Sequence record: AP019521.1 | Source of the DNA: Escherichia phage KIT01 | Length of the DNA stretch: 64,000 nucleotides | Direction: 5' to 3' (one strand) | Shown here: positions 5,757 through 64,000 of the stretch, piece after piece | Position numbering within the stretch: position 1 is the stretch's first letter | How the letters are laid out: each line of letters starts with the position of its first letter | The notes under the pieces: model-generated | What the model was told of the DNA's origin: nothing | The model's input: only the letters and a program-made list of their open reading frames with translations | Database searches by the model: none | Position numbers and translations under genes: made by a program

Positions 5757-5831
5757 TGGTATCCCGCCCTGGGATCGAACCAGGACCGCAAACTTAGAAG
5801 GATCGTATGCTATCCATTACACCAGCGGGAC
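5757..5831 (-). tRNA. tRNA-Arg (anticodon UCU), CCA encoded
   Basis: manual cloverleaf: 7-bp acceptor GTCCCGC/GCGGGAT, T-arm CCTGG-TTCGATC-CCAGG, anticodon loop CTTCTAA with U33 and A37; one mismatch in anticodon stem. Confidence 0.7.
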
Positions 5832-5836
5832 GTAGT

Positions 5837-5913
5837 TGGTGACCCAGACCAGATTTGAACTGGTAACCTTTCCCTTATGAGGGGACTGCTGCTAACCATT
5901 GAGCTACAGGGCC
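5837..5913 (-). tRNA. tRNA with CAU anticodon (Ile-lysidine type or Met), CCA encoded
   Basis: manual fold: acceptor GGCCCTG/CTGGGTC (one mismatch), U8, D-arm GCTCAATGGTTAGC, anticodon loop CTCATAA, T-arm ACCAG-TTCAAAT-CTGGT. Confidence 0.6.
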
Positions 5914-44491: not shown

Positions 44492-46054
44492 ATGGCACAA
44501 ACTACCGGTGAAAAAGAAGGCGTATTTTACGGTTATTCTCTTTATGATTTGAATAAAGAAAAACTAATAACCTTTGACGAATTACTTACAGGTATTAAAG
44601 GCGACGCTGGGGAAAATGGTGATATCGGTCCTCAAGGTCCTATTGGTTTACCTGGCCCGCAAGGTATCCAAGGTGAAGTTGGGCCTAAAGGTCCTAAAGG
44701 CGATATCGGTCTTCAGGGTATAGCAGGGCCTGCTGGTCCTCAAGGTCCACAAGGTGAACGAGGAATACAGGGCTTAACAGGACCACAAGGCCAAATAGGT
44801 ATTGCAGGGCCACAAGGCGTCAAAGGTGATACCGGTCCTCAAGGTCCTGTCGGCCCACAAGGTCCAGCAGGTGTACAAGGCGTACAAGGCGTCAAAGGTG
44901 ATACAGGTCCAGCAGGCCCTGCAGGTTTAACTTGGAAAGGAACTTGGGACTCAGCTACGGAGTATTCAATAAATGAAGCCGTAGGATATGGAGGTTCTTT
45001 GTATTTTGCTACAGAAACCGTGCCTGTCGGCGAAATCCCATCTTTAGCCTCCGACTATTGGGAAGTTTTGGCTACCGAAGGTCCAGAAGGTCCTCAAGGA
45101 CCACAAGGCATTCAGGGACCTATGGGTCCTCAGGGTATTCAAGGTCCTTTGGGTCCTGTAGGCCCGCAAGGTATCCAAGGACCAAGAGGCTTACAAGGAC
45201 CTGAAGGCGAAATAGGACCTCGTGGTTTGCAGGGGTTAAAAGGTGAAACAGGTGCTCAAGGACCGCAGGGCATTCAAGGGCTTAAAGGCGAGCCAGGGGC
45301 CCAGGGACCTGATGGTATTGGTTTAACTGGGCCTCAAGGACCAATTGGCCTTACAGGTCCAGCGGGCCCTCAGGGTATAAGAGGAGCCATAGGACCTAAA
45401 GGTGATACAGGTTTAACTGGTGCCCAAGGCGAGCAAGGTGCCCCAGGTGTTAAAGGTGATACCGGTCCTCAAGGATTACAAGGGGTTAAGGGAGATAAAG
45501 GGGATAAAGGAGATACTGGTGCCCAAGGATTACAAGGGGTTAAAGGAGATAAAGGAGACAAAGGAGATACCGCGCCTCATAATAAAGTATACTATTTAGG
45601 ACAAACCCCATGGTTCCACAACTCGTATGCTAAACATCAACTTCCAGGAACCAATGATTGGCGGATTACTGTAACAGGTACAACCAACTTTGAATCCTAT
45701 TCATCAGGTAACGTTAGAATAGGATTTTTTAATAATACTTCTGCATCCAGATCATGCACGTTTACATTGATTTCTTATGATGCTAACGGCTCACAGAAAA
45801 ATACAAAATACAATACTGTGCATAATGTTATGGTTCAAAGTTCTTATTATAAATTCTGGGGTGATAATGCCGATTCATTTATTATAGGCGGCACTTCTAA
45901 TATATGTGAAGGGTTTTTTACTGATAATGCCACCAATAAAACCTATCATATAAAATTTATAGGATTGGTCAAAGCCACAGCTACGGTACCAGGCAAATAT
46001 GTTCTTGAAGTTGAAGAGATTATTTCTGGTGGCGAACCTGTAAAATATTATTAA
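44492..46054 (+). CDS. collagen-like (Gly-X-Y repeat) protein with C-terminal globular domain
   Basis: 520 aa; two collagenous segments, each about 40 G-X-Y triplets ([13 protein letters not shown]..., [13 protein letters not shown]...), separated by a non-collagenous segment; about 160-aa Gly-free C-terminal domain. Confidence 0.85.
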
Positions 46055-59199: not shown

Positions 59200-59204
59200 C
59201 AAAA

Positions 59205-59228
59205 AAGGAGAGCATATGCTCTCCTTTA
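59205..59228. terminator. bidirectional terminator between gp54 and the alt-side operon
   Basis: perfect palindrome ggagagca-ta-tgctctcc flanked by A-tract and tttagg. Confidence 0.6.
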
Positions 59229-59233
59229 GGGGT

Positions 59234-59524
59234 TTATTTACGGAACGAAATGAAACCTGCTGTGGTCATTAGTGGTTGCTTTTTAACAAAGACCGTGATA
59301 GAAATAGGAGCTTCAGATTCAAGCTGACCGGTTACTACACCATTAAAGATATTTTCAGTTTGTTCTGGATGAGAAAAATTCTCAACAGGTCGGATATCAA
59401 ACTGTTTGTCTTCACCGAAAACTCGACGTAATTCATTACCTACTGCACTGTCAAACTCTTCGGAAGCAGGGATAACGTTTTCAACCACCAGTTCTTGACC
59501 ATTAAAACGGAATGCAGATTTCAT
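59234..59524 (-). CDS. hypothetical protein downstream of alt
   Basis: 96-aa ORF; early-type promoter at about 59535-59575. Confidence 0.4.
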   Translation of the reverse strand: MKSAFRFNGQELVVENVIPASEEFDSAVGNELRRVFGEDKQFDIRPVENFSHPEQTENIFNGVVTGQLESEAPISITVFVKKQPLMTTAGFISFRK

Positions 59525-59581: not shown

Positions 59582-61705
59582 CTACATTTTGAATTTATTT
59601 GATAAAGAAGAGATATCCAAAGACGCGGCAAGGATTTCCATAGCTTCGTTGCTTTCAGAAACGGATTCATTAACCAAGAATTGACTGAATCCATCCATCA
59701 GGCGAACTTCACCAGTTTCCATCAAATGGTCACCATCGTAAACAGATTCGCTGAGCTCTGAAGGAGGCGTTACGGTAGCTTCCATAAGGTATTTGTGAGA
59801 TACTCTATCATTCATGGCAAAAGCCGCTACTTTATCAACCTTCAACAATAATCCACGCGGAAGGATAATTTCTGCTTCTTCGGCATATTCTGTAAGGTCA
59901 CCAGGAGCGATAACTTTAACTGCTTCAGCACCTCGAATAACCATACCAATTTCAGCAATTCTATCCGCAGGACCTTCAGGTGCAATTGGATTACCGAACT
60001 CGTCTTCTTCCCATTCTACCTCTTCGTCATCGACTTCACCCACATCAGATGAACTACCACTAGCCAATTTAAACAACTCATCAGCAGAGGATAAAGAACC
60101 TTCACCACCAACAAAAACGGCTTGGTTGTCGAGGGCCATATAATTTTTACCAAATTCACCAAAGATGTTAGGCTTTAATGAGGCTGACACAAAGTTCTTA
60201 AAGTAAAATGTTTTGTTATCGATATTATGGCGCAGAATTTTGTATGGCAAATCCTGACCACGATACAAAATAGTACCCTTAGGAAGTTTAATACCCTTAG
60301 TAAATGCTGAGTCTAAATCCTTAATCAATTTAATAGCCGTTGTATTGTTTTCGGATTCAGGTTTACCTAAAAGGAATAAGTTCATAGGAGCATATTCAGC
60401 CGCGCAATATTCAATAATAGCATTGCTTTCGTCTTTGGTTAGGTCCTTAGGTTTAATGAGCTCGCCTGAATAAGCATATGCATCACTAATAGAATCGTTA
60501 ACCAGTTTATAAACGGCTTCCATAGCGAAAGCAATTCGAGATGCTTTCTCTGAAGGGGAACCCTTAAAACGGGTACTCAGGTTATTAACAATTTTCTTAA
60601 TAATATCCAGACTATTGGTTGTATTGATTTGCGAAAGGCCACTTAAAAGTCTATCGACTTCTGTATTAAAAAATGCCATATTATTAGAGTAAATTTCAAA
60701 CCCTTGTTTATCTCTATTAGCATAATTTAGTTTAAATTTACTATCAGTCATTAAAGCGTGTGTGAGAGCAATAGTGTATCTAAAGTTGGCAAGGTCCTCG
60801 CTCTTAGATTTAAACTGAGAAGCCTGGCGCATTTTAGTAATAGCACCTTTTTTAAAGTTCTGACTAATCTGTTCAATACCTTCGTTCTCAGGGCCTTCAG
60901 CCGTGTGAACCGGTACAGAAGCTTCAAACTCGTTATAAACCTGCAATTCTTTAGGGGACAAAGTTTCAGGCTCAGCAGTAGAATACTGCGCGGCCGCTGC
61001 CATACGACGCGAAATCTTAGTACGAGTAATAACAGCCTTATCAGTACGTTTCTCTTCAACTTGTGCAATAGATGCCGCTACGGCTTCGACCTTACTTACG
61101 GCCTGGCCAGTTTTCTTAGAAACATACACTTCGCCAACTTTAGACTCAACTTTAGTATAAAGATCGGCATTAATTTCAGGCATACCCTTGATATCTTCAA
61201 TATTAGCACCACGACGTACTAAAAGAACGTAGGTATGTTTTCCGCTGAATTGGAACATGTCGTCAACAACTTTAAACTTACCACCGGTACGAGCCATAGC
61301 CAAACGAGCTAATACGCGCTGGACGGTAGGACCTTTACCTTTCATTTTCTTAGTAGGGAAACGGAACAAAACCGCGTCCATTTTAAGTTTGTTTACTTGT
61401 TCGTATATGGTATCGAAAATGGTGTTCAGTGTACCGAGTGGATCGGTACCCAAACCACCCTTGAGTTCTGCCGGAGCGCCTTTAGCAGATAAACTCATTA
61501 AGATAACATGGACGTACTTATCACCATTTTTAACCATCTTAATAGCGTCGCCTTCAGACGCATAAGATACCATACGTGCTACTAAATTGTCATTACCAGG
61601 AGCATGTACCGCAAAAATCTGCGGTACGCCTGAGCCAGGTTTAAGATTTGTTACTGGGTAATTTTTTTTATCGCTTTTATCAAAAACTTCGTTTAAATTT
61701 TCCAT
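59582..61705 (-). CDS. alt: Alt-like ADP-ribosyltransferase, paralog 1
   Basis: 707 aa (T4 Alt 682); N-terminus and ...YTKVESKVGEVYVSKKTG... match recalled T4 Alt; ART motifs LYRGQ, FVSASL, EEAEIILPRG; C-terminal DGDHLMETGE. Confidence 0.9.
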   Translation of the reverse strand: MENLNEVFDKSDKKNYPVTNLKPGSGVPQIFAVHAPGNDNLVARMVSYASEGDAIKMVKNGDKYVHVILMSLSAKGAPAELKGGLGTDPLGTLNTIFDTIYEQVNKLKMDAVLFRFPTKKMKGKGPTVQRVLARLAMARTGGKFKVVDDMFQFSGKHTYVLLVRRGANIEDIKGMPEINADLYTKVESKVGEVYVSKKTGQAVSKVEAVAASIAQVEEKRTDKAVITRTKISRRMAAAAQYSTAEPETLSPKELQVYNEFEASVPVHTAEGPENEGIEQISQNFKKGAITKMRQASQFKSKSEDLANFRYTIALTHALMTDSKFKLNYANRDKQGFEIYSNNMAFFNTEVDRLLSGLSQINTTNSLDIIKKIVNNLSTRFKGSPSEKASRIAFAMEAVYKLVNDSISDAYAYSGELIKPKDLTKDESNAIIEYCAAEYAPMNLFLLGKPESENNTTAIKLIKDLDSAFTKGIKLPKGTILYRGQDLPYKILRHNIDNKTFYFKNFVSASLKPNIFGEFGKNYMALDNQAVFVGGEGSLSSADELFKLASGSSSDVGEVDDEEVEWEEDEFGNPIAPEGPADRIAEIGMVIRGAEAVKVIAPGDLTEYAEEAEIILPRGLLLKVDKVAAFAMNDRVSHKYLMEATVTPPSELSESVYDGDHLMETGEVRLMDGFSQFLVNESVSESNEAMEILAASLDISSLSNKFKM

Positions 61706-61708
61706 TAT

Positions 61709-63754
61709 TTACCCTTGGGTGAATTTTTCTGGGGTTTCGTCAAAATTAATACATGAAGCTAAAATAGGCATTATATCCACCTTGGTCGATTTGACGAATG
61801 AATCAAAAGACACAGGGTTGTCGGTCTCTGTTTCTACGCCTTGGTAAACAACCAATTCGCCGGTTTCCATCAATGCATCACCATCATAGATAACCGCATT
61901 TTCTGCTAGTTGGTCTGTGGTCTGGATGTCAGCTTCCAATAATTTGGTGTTGTAGTTTCCTTTATATGAGGCATCTGTAATTTTAGTAATCTTAACAGTA
62001 GTTCCACGTGGAAGAATAACCTCTTGTTCTGTTGGAGAACCTGACAATTCACCGGGCACAATTACGTTAATAGAGTCTGCACCGGAAATTTTCCAACCGA
62101 TGTTCATCATTGTATTTTCGGAACTCGTCAGCATACTTGGAAGAACAATTTCATTATCGCCTTGGAAAGATGTCCCAGCACGATAGTCCTGATGAACTGC
62201 GGCCATTGCGACGTTTGATACCCAGCCGCCAAAGATAATCGGCTTAAGGGACGTTGATACATAGTTCCTGAAATAAAACAATTTTGAGTGTTTGATTTTA
62301 TCAAAAGTGTTAACATTTAAATATTGACCACGCCAAAGTGTAATATCAGGTGGCAATTTATGGCCAATTTCAAATGCCGCATCCATATCATTAATTACTT
62401 CAATTACACGATAACTATCAATAAATTCTGCATCCTCTTCATAATAATTACCCAACAAATAATTATTAACATCGGTATAATATTGGCCGCAATAAGAAGA
62501 AATAGCCTCACGCTGCTCATACTCAAATCGATTATCGCTATAACTGGCTGTAAAATGCATAACACTTTCTGACGCTTCATTAGCAAAGTCGCTAACAGCA
62601 GCACTTATACGTTGAGCATACTCTTGTTCCCAAAGCTCTGCCGCATATTCTGCCGCATCCATATTAGGAGGAGCCTCATTCATTTTTCTTTCGATAAATG
62701 CAGCTTTGCGAAGGTTAAGAACCTCTGCACATGATTCGGCAAAAATCTGCATCTGCTTCATACTGCCGACAGGAGCACGTTTAAGTTCACGATGCATACG
62801 GTTAAAAATTGGGTCGGAGTCTTCGACTCGAATTTCTTCTTTCCAAACACCGTTTGCTCGCATAGCCATATCTGCCGCGCGCATACGCTCCATAGTATTC
62901 GTTTCAGAAGGTTGAATAAAAATTTCTAGTTCTTCATAATCATCGATAAGTTCTGCTGTTGCTGGGGCGCTAAATTTTGATGCCTCTGCATCAATCTCAT
63001 CCCAACCTTCCGGAACTTCATCTCGAGGAGAATACTGGGCTGCGGCTACAGCACGCCTAGAAATCTTGGTAGTAGTAATAACAGCCTTATCCGTACGTTT
63101 TTCTTCGACTGCAGCTATACTAGCAGATAGTGCTTCTATTTTGGTTACTGATTGGCCTGTTTTCTTGGATACATAAACCTCACCAACTTTAGACTCAACC
63201 TTAGTGTAAAGGTCTGCATCAATTTCAGGCATACCTTTTATGTCCTCAATATTAGCTTGTTTACGAACCAGTAAAACGTATGTATGTTTGCCTGTAAATT
63301 GATACAAATCATCGACAACTTTAAACTTGCCGCCAGTACGAGCCATCGCCAAACGTGCCAATACACGTTGAACAGTAGGACCTTTACCTTTCATTTTCTT
63401 GGTAGGGAACCGGAAAAGAACTGCATCCATACGAAGAGCTTTAACTTGTTCGTATACAGTATCAAAAATGGTATTCAGCGTACCAAGTGGGTCAGAACCT
63501 AACCCGCCTTTCAACTCGGCTGGGGTACCCTTAGCAGACAAACTCATCAAAATAACATGAACATATTTATCGCCCGGCTTAACCATTTTAATAGCGTCTC
63601 CTTGAGACGCATAAGATACCATACGAGCAACCAGGTTATCGTTACCTGGTGCTTGGATAGAGAAAATCTGTGGAATACCGGAACCCGGTTTAAGATTTAC
63701 TACTGGATAGTTTTTAGCGGAATCACTATCAAAAACCTCGTTTAAATTTTCCAT
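61709..63754 (-). CDS. Alt-like ADP-ribosyltransferase, paralog 2
   Basis: 681 aa; N-terminal about 230 aa near-identical to paralog 1, divergent centre; ART motifs LWRGQ, YVSTSL, EQEVILPRG. Confidence 0.9.
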   Translation of the reverse strand: MENLNEVFDSDSAKNYPVVNLKPGSGIPQIFSIQAPGNDNLVARMVSYASQGDAIKMVKPGDKYVHVILMSLSAKGTPAELKGGLGSDPLGTLNTIFDTVYEQVKALRMDAVLFRFPTKKMKGKGPTVQRVLARLAMARTGGKFKVVDDLYQFTGKHTYVLLVRKQANIEDIKGMPEIDADLYTKVESKVGEVYVSKKTGQSVTKIEALSASIAAVEEKRTDKAVITTTKISRRAVAAAQYSPRDEVPEGWDEIDAEASKFSAPATAELIDDYEELEIFIQPSETNTMERMRAADMAMRANGVWKEEIRVEDSDPIFNRMHRELKRAPVGSMKQMQIFAESCAEVLNLRKAAFIERKMNEAPPNMDAAEYAAELWEQEYAQRISAAVSDFANEASESVMHFTASYSDNRFEYEQREAISSYCGQYYTDVNNYLLGNYYEEDAEFIDSYRVIEVINDMDAAFEIGHKLPPDITLWRGQYLNVNTFDKIKHSKLFYFRNYVSTSLKPIIFGGWVSNVAMAAVHQDYRAGTSFQGDNEIVLPSMLTSSENTMMNIGWKISGADSINVIVPGELSGSPTEQEVILPRGTTVKITKITDASYKGNYNTKLLEADIQTTDQLAENAVIYDGDALMETGELVVYQGVETETDNPVSFDSFVKSTKVDIMPILASCINFDETPEKFTQG

Positions 63755-63757
63755 TAT

Positions 63758-64000
63758 TTACCCTTGGATGAATTTTTCTGGGATGTCATAGAGGTCTATG
63801 CATGAAGCCAAAAGAGACAGTACATCAAACCGTGTAGATTTAACAAATGAATCAAAAGATACGGGGCTTTCGGAAGTATCGAAATCATCTTGATATACGA
63901 CCAACTCACCGGTTTCCATTAGTACGTCACCATCATATACCACAGATTCTTGAAGCTCATCTGATGTCATAACTTCAGCTTGAATAAATTTATTGTTAGA
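63758..64000 (-). CDS. Alt-like ADP-ribosyltransferase, paralog 3 (C-terminal part only; truncated by window edge)
   Basis: C-terminus VVYDGDVLMETGELVVYQ...LASCIDLYDIPEKFIQG matches the Alt C-terminal packaging region; frame stays open to the window end. Confidence 0.8.
   Translation of the reverse strand, partial: SNNKFIQAEVMTSDELQESVVYDGDVLMETGELVVYQDDFDTSESPVSFDSFVKSTRFDVLSLLASCIDLYDIPEKFIQG

Follow-up and report, generated by a model that had tools for sequence, protein, structure and literature searches.

Among phage enzymes that travel in the head and enter the host to gain control of it, Alt is the classic example. In phage T4, about 40 copies are packaged in the head and injected together with the DNA (PMC9958956, PMC9026906), and the T4 literature describes ADP-ribosylation of RNA polymerase alpha (Arg265) and of other host proteins. 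During head maturation the protease gp21 cuts T4 Alt at ITE-6 and LTE-619, removing 6 and 63 residues and leaving a mature protein of 68.2 kDa, as determined by mass spectrometry (PMC5694885). The roles of both propeptides were left open there, that of the C-terminal one explicitly so (PMC5694885), and the capsid-targeting sequence of the T4 literature is the short N-terminal propeptide (PMC9026906). Such capsid-targeting propeptides are a feature of the T4 proteins IPI-III and Alt; they end in L/I-x-E and direct the protein into the core. Duplications of alt were published in 2006 and 2014: tandem duplications in 44RR, RB49 and T4 (alt.-1/-2) (PMC1524935), and duplications in JS98, Bp7, Ac42 and ZZ1, the last with three Alt-like genes of which one is split into an N-domain gene and an ADP-ribosyltransferase (ART) gene (PMC4177764).

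The subject of this report is the alt locus of Escherichia phage KIT01, analyzed in a stretch of 64,000 nucleotides from sequence record AP019521.1 (hereafter the window), where three alt-type genes, which we call P1, P2 and P3, are packed tightly on the minus strand between positions 59582 and 64000. All alt coordinates below refer to this strand. P1 (59582..61705) encodes 707 amino acids and is the orthologue of JS98 altA (96% amino acid identity). P2 (61709..63754) encodes 681 amino acids and is a mosaic gene; QL01-type phages have it and JS98 lacks it. P3 is represented by its final 80 codons (63758..64000) and is the positional orthologue of T4 alt and JS98 altB; its frame is open from the window edge at 64000 down to the stop codon at 63758-63760, which makes 80 residues visible, and the full-length protein has 694 residues in QL01. 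An earlier note on this DNA had listed two complete genes and a third cut by the edge, and the open reading frames lie where it had placed them. Our overall reading, to which we assign a probability of roughly 0.8, is that the three Alt genes are co-transcribed, that each combines a conserved frame with a variable payload, and that the array arose by tandem duplication and was reshaped by recombination.

KIT01 is a QL01-type Dhakavirus and this region its alt locus; the three-copy cluster is already known and publicly annotated. In a megablast search the segment 59000-64000 matched Escherichia phage QL01 (Dhakavirus) with 97.8% nucleotide identity over 100% of the query, and the next-best matches, C6, UGJNEcP3/4, fDHCT2, MX01 and AnYang, had 94.5-97.6% identity. 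RefSeq annotates three genes in the QL01-type phages, with products of 707, 681 and 694 amino acids, as “Alt-like RNA polymerase ADP-ribosyltransferase”. QL01 (gp198-gp200), like MX01, C6, AnYang, UGJNEcP3/4 and fDHCT2, has these three genes in identical order and with identical lengths (94.5-97.8% nucleotide identity), and KIT01 differs from QL01 by point differences only, an example being the P1 N-terminus, which reads ...FDKSDKKN here and ...FDSDSAKN in QL01.

More distant relatives have other copy numbers. The type phage of the genus, JS98, carries two copies (altA/altB) at the same locus, without P2, and the centre of its altB differs from that of QL01 P3. Two full tandem Alt copies are annotated in Tequatroviruses of the wV7/RB32 type and in dhabil, and the Gapriverviruses VR25 and TH41 have a single alt, of which the centre and ART domain are like those of P2 (61-95% amino acid identity per block). 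T4 Alt (gpAlt, NP_049811) shares with P1-P3 the locus, the four-part architecture and the R/S-x-S/E-x-E residues, and its overall identity to the paralogues is 35-41%, falling to near zero in the P1 centre. P1 differs from it further by an acidic insertion of 64 residues and by a different extreme C-terminus. According to the record annotation T4 has one intact alt and a decayed 5' duplicate (alt.-1/alt.-2), whereas three intact genes are present here.

Family membership and catalytic domains

P1 and P2 are clearly related (BLASTP 532 bits, E = 0) and both belong to the Alt family: Pfam PF03496 (ADPrib_exo_Tox) matched P1 with 2.6e-17 and P2 with 8.6e-21, and PHROG 802, “Alt-like RNA polymerase ADP-ribosyltransferase”, covers both end to end (2e-248 and 6e-255). 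In NCBIfam no family matched P1 or P2. The R / S-x-S / E-x-E signature that the earlier note had read in both complete copies was verified by translation, with no catalytic residue lost. It consists of R482, S507-A-S509 and E610-A-E612 in P1 (codons at 60260-60262, 60179-60187 and 59870-59878) and of R475, S500-T-S502 and E576-Q-E578 in P2 (62330-62332, 62249-62257 and 62021-62029); for P3 the motif was read only in the QL01 orthologue. Among 77 homologues the arginine is kept in 76, and the first serine and both glutamates in all 77.

AlphaFold2 models of P1 and P2 (mean predicted local distance difference test scores of 76 and 81) consist of an alpha/beta N-domain (~15-240), an all-helical centre, an ART domain and a low-confidence C-terminal tail. 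Both ART domains were modelled with high confidence and match the mono-ART fold of the C3/VIP2/Vis type. A sequence search of the PDB with P2 gave no match at E <= 0.01, so that no Alt structure is available by sequence. The ART domain of P1 (residues 421-653, 59747..60445), which ends at a predicted gp21 site, contains an insertion of 64 residues (517-580, 59966..60157, ..DVGEVDDEEVEWEEDEFGNPI..) that separates the S-x-S strand from the core strand after it. The insertion is acidic, with 17 D/E against 2 K/R, is predicted to be disordered, and was found in P1/altA only.

From the E-x-E motif and the analogy with T4 Alt we infer that the three genes encode arginine-type mono-ADP-ribosyltransferases of the Alt family. 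The R-S-E mono-ADP-ribosylating toxins of the same Pfam family (C3, VIP2, iota and Vis; PF03496) are secreted and have neither the N-domain nor the propeptides of the Alts, which are virion-packaged phage proteins.

Propeptides and the N-domain

To locate gp21-type sites we used the rule that the N-terminal site is the first L/I-x-E within the first ten residues and the C-terminal site the last L/I-x-E ahead of YDGD. Applied to T4 Alt, the rule matched the published values exactly (ITE-6, LTE-619, 63 residues and 68.2 kDa). In P1 it points to LNE-6 and LSE-653, giving a C-propeptide of 54 residues and a mature protein of 71.2 kDa; in P2 to LNE-6 and LAE-618, with 63 residues and 68.3 kDa; and in P3, as completed from QL01, to LNE-7 and LQE-632, with 62 residues and 69.5 kDa. 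The predicted N-propeptide of P1, MENLNE (61688..61705), thus ends in a gp21-type L-x-E for which ITE-6 of T4 is the precedent, and that of P2 lies at 63737-63754. The predicted C-propeptides occupy 59582..59746 in P1 (54 codons and stop), 61709..61900 in P2 (63 codons and stop, with a distal half of the P3/altB type) and 63758-63946 in P3, the last two being preceded by the LAE-618 site at 61901-61909 and the LQE site at 63947-63955. All C-propeptides are acidic, with isoelectric points of about 4.1 (4.1 in P1), while the isoelectric points of the three mature Alts are 6.3, 5.2 and 8.8.

These L-x-E motifs are predicted sites, and they stand at homologous positions in every copy and in ~96% of 77 homologues. 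At the N-terminal site (MENLNE followed by VFD) position 4 is L/I in 74/77 and position 6 is E in 74/77; at the C-terminal site L/I is found in 74/77 and E in 75/77. In the alignment with T4 Alt both positions again hold L/I-x-E, and there they are the published gp21 cuts. This bears on the “C-terminal capsid-packaging tail” of the earlier note. The alignment identifies the tail as the homologue of the propeptide that gp21 removes from T4 Alt, while the capsid-targeting sequence of the literature is N-terminal, so the name needs correcting and a packaging role for the tail is hypothetical. The motif assigned to the end of all copies held in part: YDGDxLMETGE is present in P1, P2 and P3, whereas ASCI...EKF.QG is confined to P2 and P3, and P1 ends in ...AASLDISSLSNKFKM.

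Across the Alt family no part of the protein is better conserved than the N-domain, which has a mean column conservation of 0.74; the ART domain reaches 0.62-0.64 and the centre 0.33. It spans residues 7-240 in P1 (60986..61687) and 7-235 in P2, where N-propeptide and N-domain together, the latter of the altA type, occupy 63050..63754. As the earlier note had observed, P1 and P2 are near-identical here: residues 1-240 are about 86-88% identical, with 76-92% in each block of 40 columns and a nucleotide identity of 72-82%. The same note had extended the Alt N-terminal region to all three copies, which was seen directly in P1 and P2, while the N-terminus of P3 lies beyond the window and is taken from QL01. 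The synonymous divergence (dS) between the N-domains of P1 and P2 is 1.86 overall and ranges from 1.1 to infinity in blocks of 40 codons, and is thus saturated, while the nonsynonymous divergence (dN) is 0.11, corresponding to a dN/dS of ~0.06, showing that the duplication is old and that the protein sequence has been held by selection.

An Alt-specific domain was found at this extreme N-terminus. A phmmer search with residues 1-242 of P2 against 1.84 billion representative proteins gave 68 proteins, nearly all of 600-712 amino acids, with the domain always N-terminal, and PF26846 (Tevenvirinae_ADPRT) was present as a precomputed assignment on 116/116 homologues, representatives of 95% and 99% identical clusters included. 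A literature search on PF26846 gave nothing. Four proteins, P0167, P0168, P0170 and P0171, were inspected for an N-domain fused to a non-ART payload. P0168 is a protein of 1142 amino acids (metagenome contig L007 552-3980) in which the Alt N-domain, residues 14-211, is followed by about 930 residues. Beyond the N-domain no ART was detected in any of the four by Pfam or PHROGs; degenerate ART-like motifs were seen by eye in P0168 (possibly in two copies), P0167 and P0171, and no clear case of such a fusion was obtained.

The models of the N-domain show a modest resemblance to the GNAT fold, and a subdomain of RNase E scores equally well. When the isolated N-domains of P2, T4 Alt, QL01 P3 and VR25 were searched at E <= 10 against a copy of Pfam without PF26846, nothing relevant and no GNAT was found, and hhalign of the N-domain profile against six Pfam-validated GNATs was not significant (probability 0.09%, E = 0.58). 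A sequence-level GNAT relationship, with motif A (Q/R-x-x-G-x-G/A) between strand and helix, was thus not found. The domain does have a near-invariant L-K-G-G-L-G loop (61448-61465 in P1, 63497-63514 in P2; G-L-G in 75-76/77) that lies after strand 64-72 and before helix 89-107. In the hhalign alignment, itself not significant, this loop is paired with Q-R-Q-G-L-G of RimI, which is suggestive only. We therefore treat GNAT kinship as a weak lead at the level of the modelled fold, not as a result. A more far-reaching view, which we put forward as doubtful, is that Alts could be two-part delivery devices, in which a GNAT-derived N-domain has kept a glycine loop of the coenzyme A type, either as a second enzymatic or cofactor-binding activity brought into the host or as the real head-incorporation module, and in which the centre and ART domain form an effector cassette exchanged between phage genera at TKISRR and YDGDxLMETGEL. 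If so, the alt locus would be a diversity-generating site for injected effectors.

Divergent centres and the mosaic gene P2

The earlier note was also right that the central portions differ strongly: alignment columns 241-440 of P1 and P2 (~residues 240-425) are just 0-28% identical, and the ART domains 33-44%. The variable helical centre of P1 (residues 241-420, 60446..60985) is unrelated in sequence to that of P2. Comparison with VR25 suggests where the latter came from. Over the N-terminal ~240 columns, up to TKISRR at about residue 235, P2 is 76-92% identical to P1 and only 28-55% identical to VR25, while over columns 241-680 (~residues 238-615), again in blocks of 40 columns, it is 61-95% identical to VR25, 0-52% to P1 and 8-58% to P3. 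The VR25-type stretch runs from TKISRR to YDGDxLMETGELVVY at about residue 640, so that the central and ART cassette of Gaprivervirus type comprises residues 236-640 (61835..63049), with a dS to VR25 of about 0.9-1.0 and a dN/dS of 0.13-0.17. In the distal C-propeptide the identity to VR25 drops to 44%, and the last ~26 residues of P2 are closest to P3 (58% amino acid and 73% nucleotide identity). Judged by these alignments P2 is a mosaic of an altA-type N-domain, a VR25-type centre and ART domain, and an altB-type end. Since its centre is a VR25-type cassette, the divergence of the centres is, on this comparison, more than change after duplication.

Similar patterns are seen in the relatives. 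QL01 P3 (L001 10759-12843) and JS98 altB (L002 8710-10797) have a common N-domain (dN 0.018) and C-propeptide (dN 0.014), with unrelated centres (dN 0.74) and diverged ART domains (dN 0.30), which looks like a second cassette replacement. Codons 1-40 of JS98 altA (L002 6583-8709) are P2-like (dS 0.04) and have a saturated dS to P1; the similarity to P2 decays over codons 41-80 (dS 0.37), and the remaining codons are P1-like. By this codon pattern JS98 altA is a hybrid of a P2 5' part and a P1 3' part, so that a crossover inside the N-domain connects the two-copy and the three-copy states. This exchange postdates the general divergence of JS98 and the QL01-type phage (dS about 0.5-0.9). In total the altA-type N-domain (82-92% identical) was found with at least five different combinations of centre and ART domain. 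The paralogues are under purifying selection, dN/dS against orthologues being 0.03-0.2 in every domain of all paralogues.

The junction between P3 and P2 (63730..63790, ..CCAGAAAAATTCATCCAAGGGTAAATAATGGAAAATTTAAACGAG..) is nearly identical to that between P2 and P1 (61680..61740), which is the second copy of a duplicated junction. This is consistent with unequal crossing-over of altB and altA, in which the centre may have been replaced alongside or later. A simple unequal crossover between altA and altB was considered as the whole origin of P2; it covers the termini and the junction, but not the VR25-type centre.

Transcription, a model of the array and its alternatives

The intergenic gaps between P3 and P2 and between P2 and P1 are 3 nucleotides each, and an AAGGG stretch resembling a Shine-Dalgarno sequence lies within the last codons of each upstream alt gene. 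No T4-type late promoter core TATAAATA was found on the minus strand between 59000 and 64000; upstream from P3, QL01 has a hairpin followed by CATAAATA. Sigma-70-like and terminator-like matches inside the alt genes were as frequent as expected by chance and were discarded. Downstream from P1 follows the alt.-3 homologue (59234..59524, minus strand, 96 amino acids, DUF5498 in Pfam, PHROG 1739), with which the alt transcription unit appears to end. T4 can escape the CmdTAC defence system through C-terminal extensions of its Alt.-3 (PMC11618068). Between the converging alt.-3 (minus strand) and gene 54 (plus strand) lies a terminator-like hairpin (59204..59227) with a 10-bp stem and a T-run, which looks like a bidirectional terminator, and a single late transcript P3-P2-P1-alt.-3 would end here.

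Genes 29, 48 and 54 on the plus strand adjoin the alt.-3 side of the cluster inside the window, where the order 54, alt.-3, alt is that of T4. The opposite flank, with alt.1 and gene 30, lies past the end of the window and was read from the QL01, JS98 and T4 records, and alt is found between the DNA ligase gene (30)/alt.1 and alt.-3/gene 54. Elsewhere in the window an open reading frame of 520 amino acids (44492-46054, plus strand) consists mostly of two long blocks of collagen-like Gly-X-Y repeats, with an array at 45451-45579 detected by Tandem Repeats Finder, and ends in a globular part of ~130 residues; adjacent transfer RNA genes for Arg(TCT) and Met(CAT) lie at 5757-5913 on the minus strand, ARAGORN and Rfam being in agreement.

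In the model that we propose each Alt has a conserved frame holding a variable payload. The frame consists of the predicted N-propeptide of 6-7 residues, the N-domain of ~235 residues and the predicted acidic C-propeptide of 54-63 residues, and the payload of the helical central region and the ART domain. As homologues of T4 Alt, the three proteins would be synthesized late and built into the prohead core, where the prohead protease gp21 would trim both ends at L-x-E to give mature chains of about 68-71 kDa. These would enter the host together with the DNA and use nicotinamide adenine dinucleotide (NAD+) to ADP-ribosylate host proteins. The array would have originated by tandem duplication, and homologous recombination within the conserved frame would have reshaped it; the putative crossover points are two conserved motifs on either side of the payload, TKISRR and YDGDxLMETGEL. 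From the analogy with T4 it is very likely that P1, P2 and P3 are packaged and injected, and their sequences make different host targets plausible, since divergence of centres and ART loops under purifying selection fits a diversified specificity.

Several points weigh against this model. Packaging and enzyme activity in this phage are carried over by homology from T4 Alt, and arginine specificity leans on that protein and the E-x-E motif. P3 is visible as 80 residues only, the remainder being taken from QL01, and the late promoter upstream in QL01 is off consensus at the first base and lies outside the window. Different targets are suggested only by the divergent centre, the loop before E-x-E, the insertion after S-x-S and the isoelectric points of the mature proteins.

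The three Alts might instead all modify the same target, Arg265 of RNA polymerase alpha as in T4, the copies being kept for dose or against variation and counter-measures in different host strains, and not for a broader range of substrates. The common catalytic architecture and frame would agree with this, as would the single copy and decayed remnant that suffice for T4 and the copy number that varies among close relatives (two in JS98, three in QL01). We nevertheless consider it unlikely, as the centres cannot be aligned (0-28%) and the ART domains are 33-44% identical, each under purifying selection, and as the 64-residue acidic insertion is found only in P1; dosage alone would not preserve such different sequences. 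Furthermore, T4 Alt itself has many reported protein substrates (Depping 2005, cited in PMC5512222).

That one or more copies are non-enzymatic, serving as structural internal head proteins or as decoys that fill core space, might be suggested by the degenerate or undetectable ART motifs in the distant N-domain-bearing relatives P0167, P0170 and P0171 and by the stand-alone N-domain gene of Acinetobacter phage ZZ1 (PMC4177764). With every catalytic residue kept in P1 and P2, ART models of high confidence and a dN/dS of 0.03-0.17, we regard this as very improbable. The near-identity of the P1 and P2 N-domains, finally, could have come from a recent gene conversion, or from a duplication of very recent date, instead of from constraint: about 88% amino acid identity over 240 residues beside unalignable centres resembles a conversion tract, and recent exchange did occur elsewhere, as in codons 1-40 of JS98 altA. 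This was tested and rejected on the saturated dS (1.86, with a dN of 0.11), seen in every block of 40 codons and accompanied by a nucleotide identity of only 72-82%, and we find it scarcely credible.

Because such arrays are already annotated and published, the cluster alone adds little. In the papers searched we did not find a description of the mosaic architecture, of both protease sites in every paralogue or of the age of the N-domain duplication. What is added here is the presence of gp21 motifs at both ends in all paralogues, an ancient and strongly constrained frame, and an enzyme-bearing centre that is swapped between phage genera, which together give a concrete and testable picture of how the effector set may diversify. 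The N-domain is the part most worth experimental study. More generally, diverged Alt arrays point to a variable repertoire of injected, host-modifying enzymes in T-even phages.

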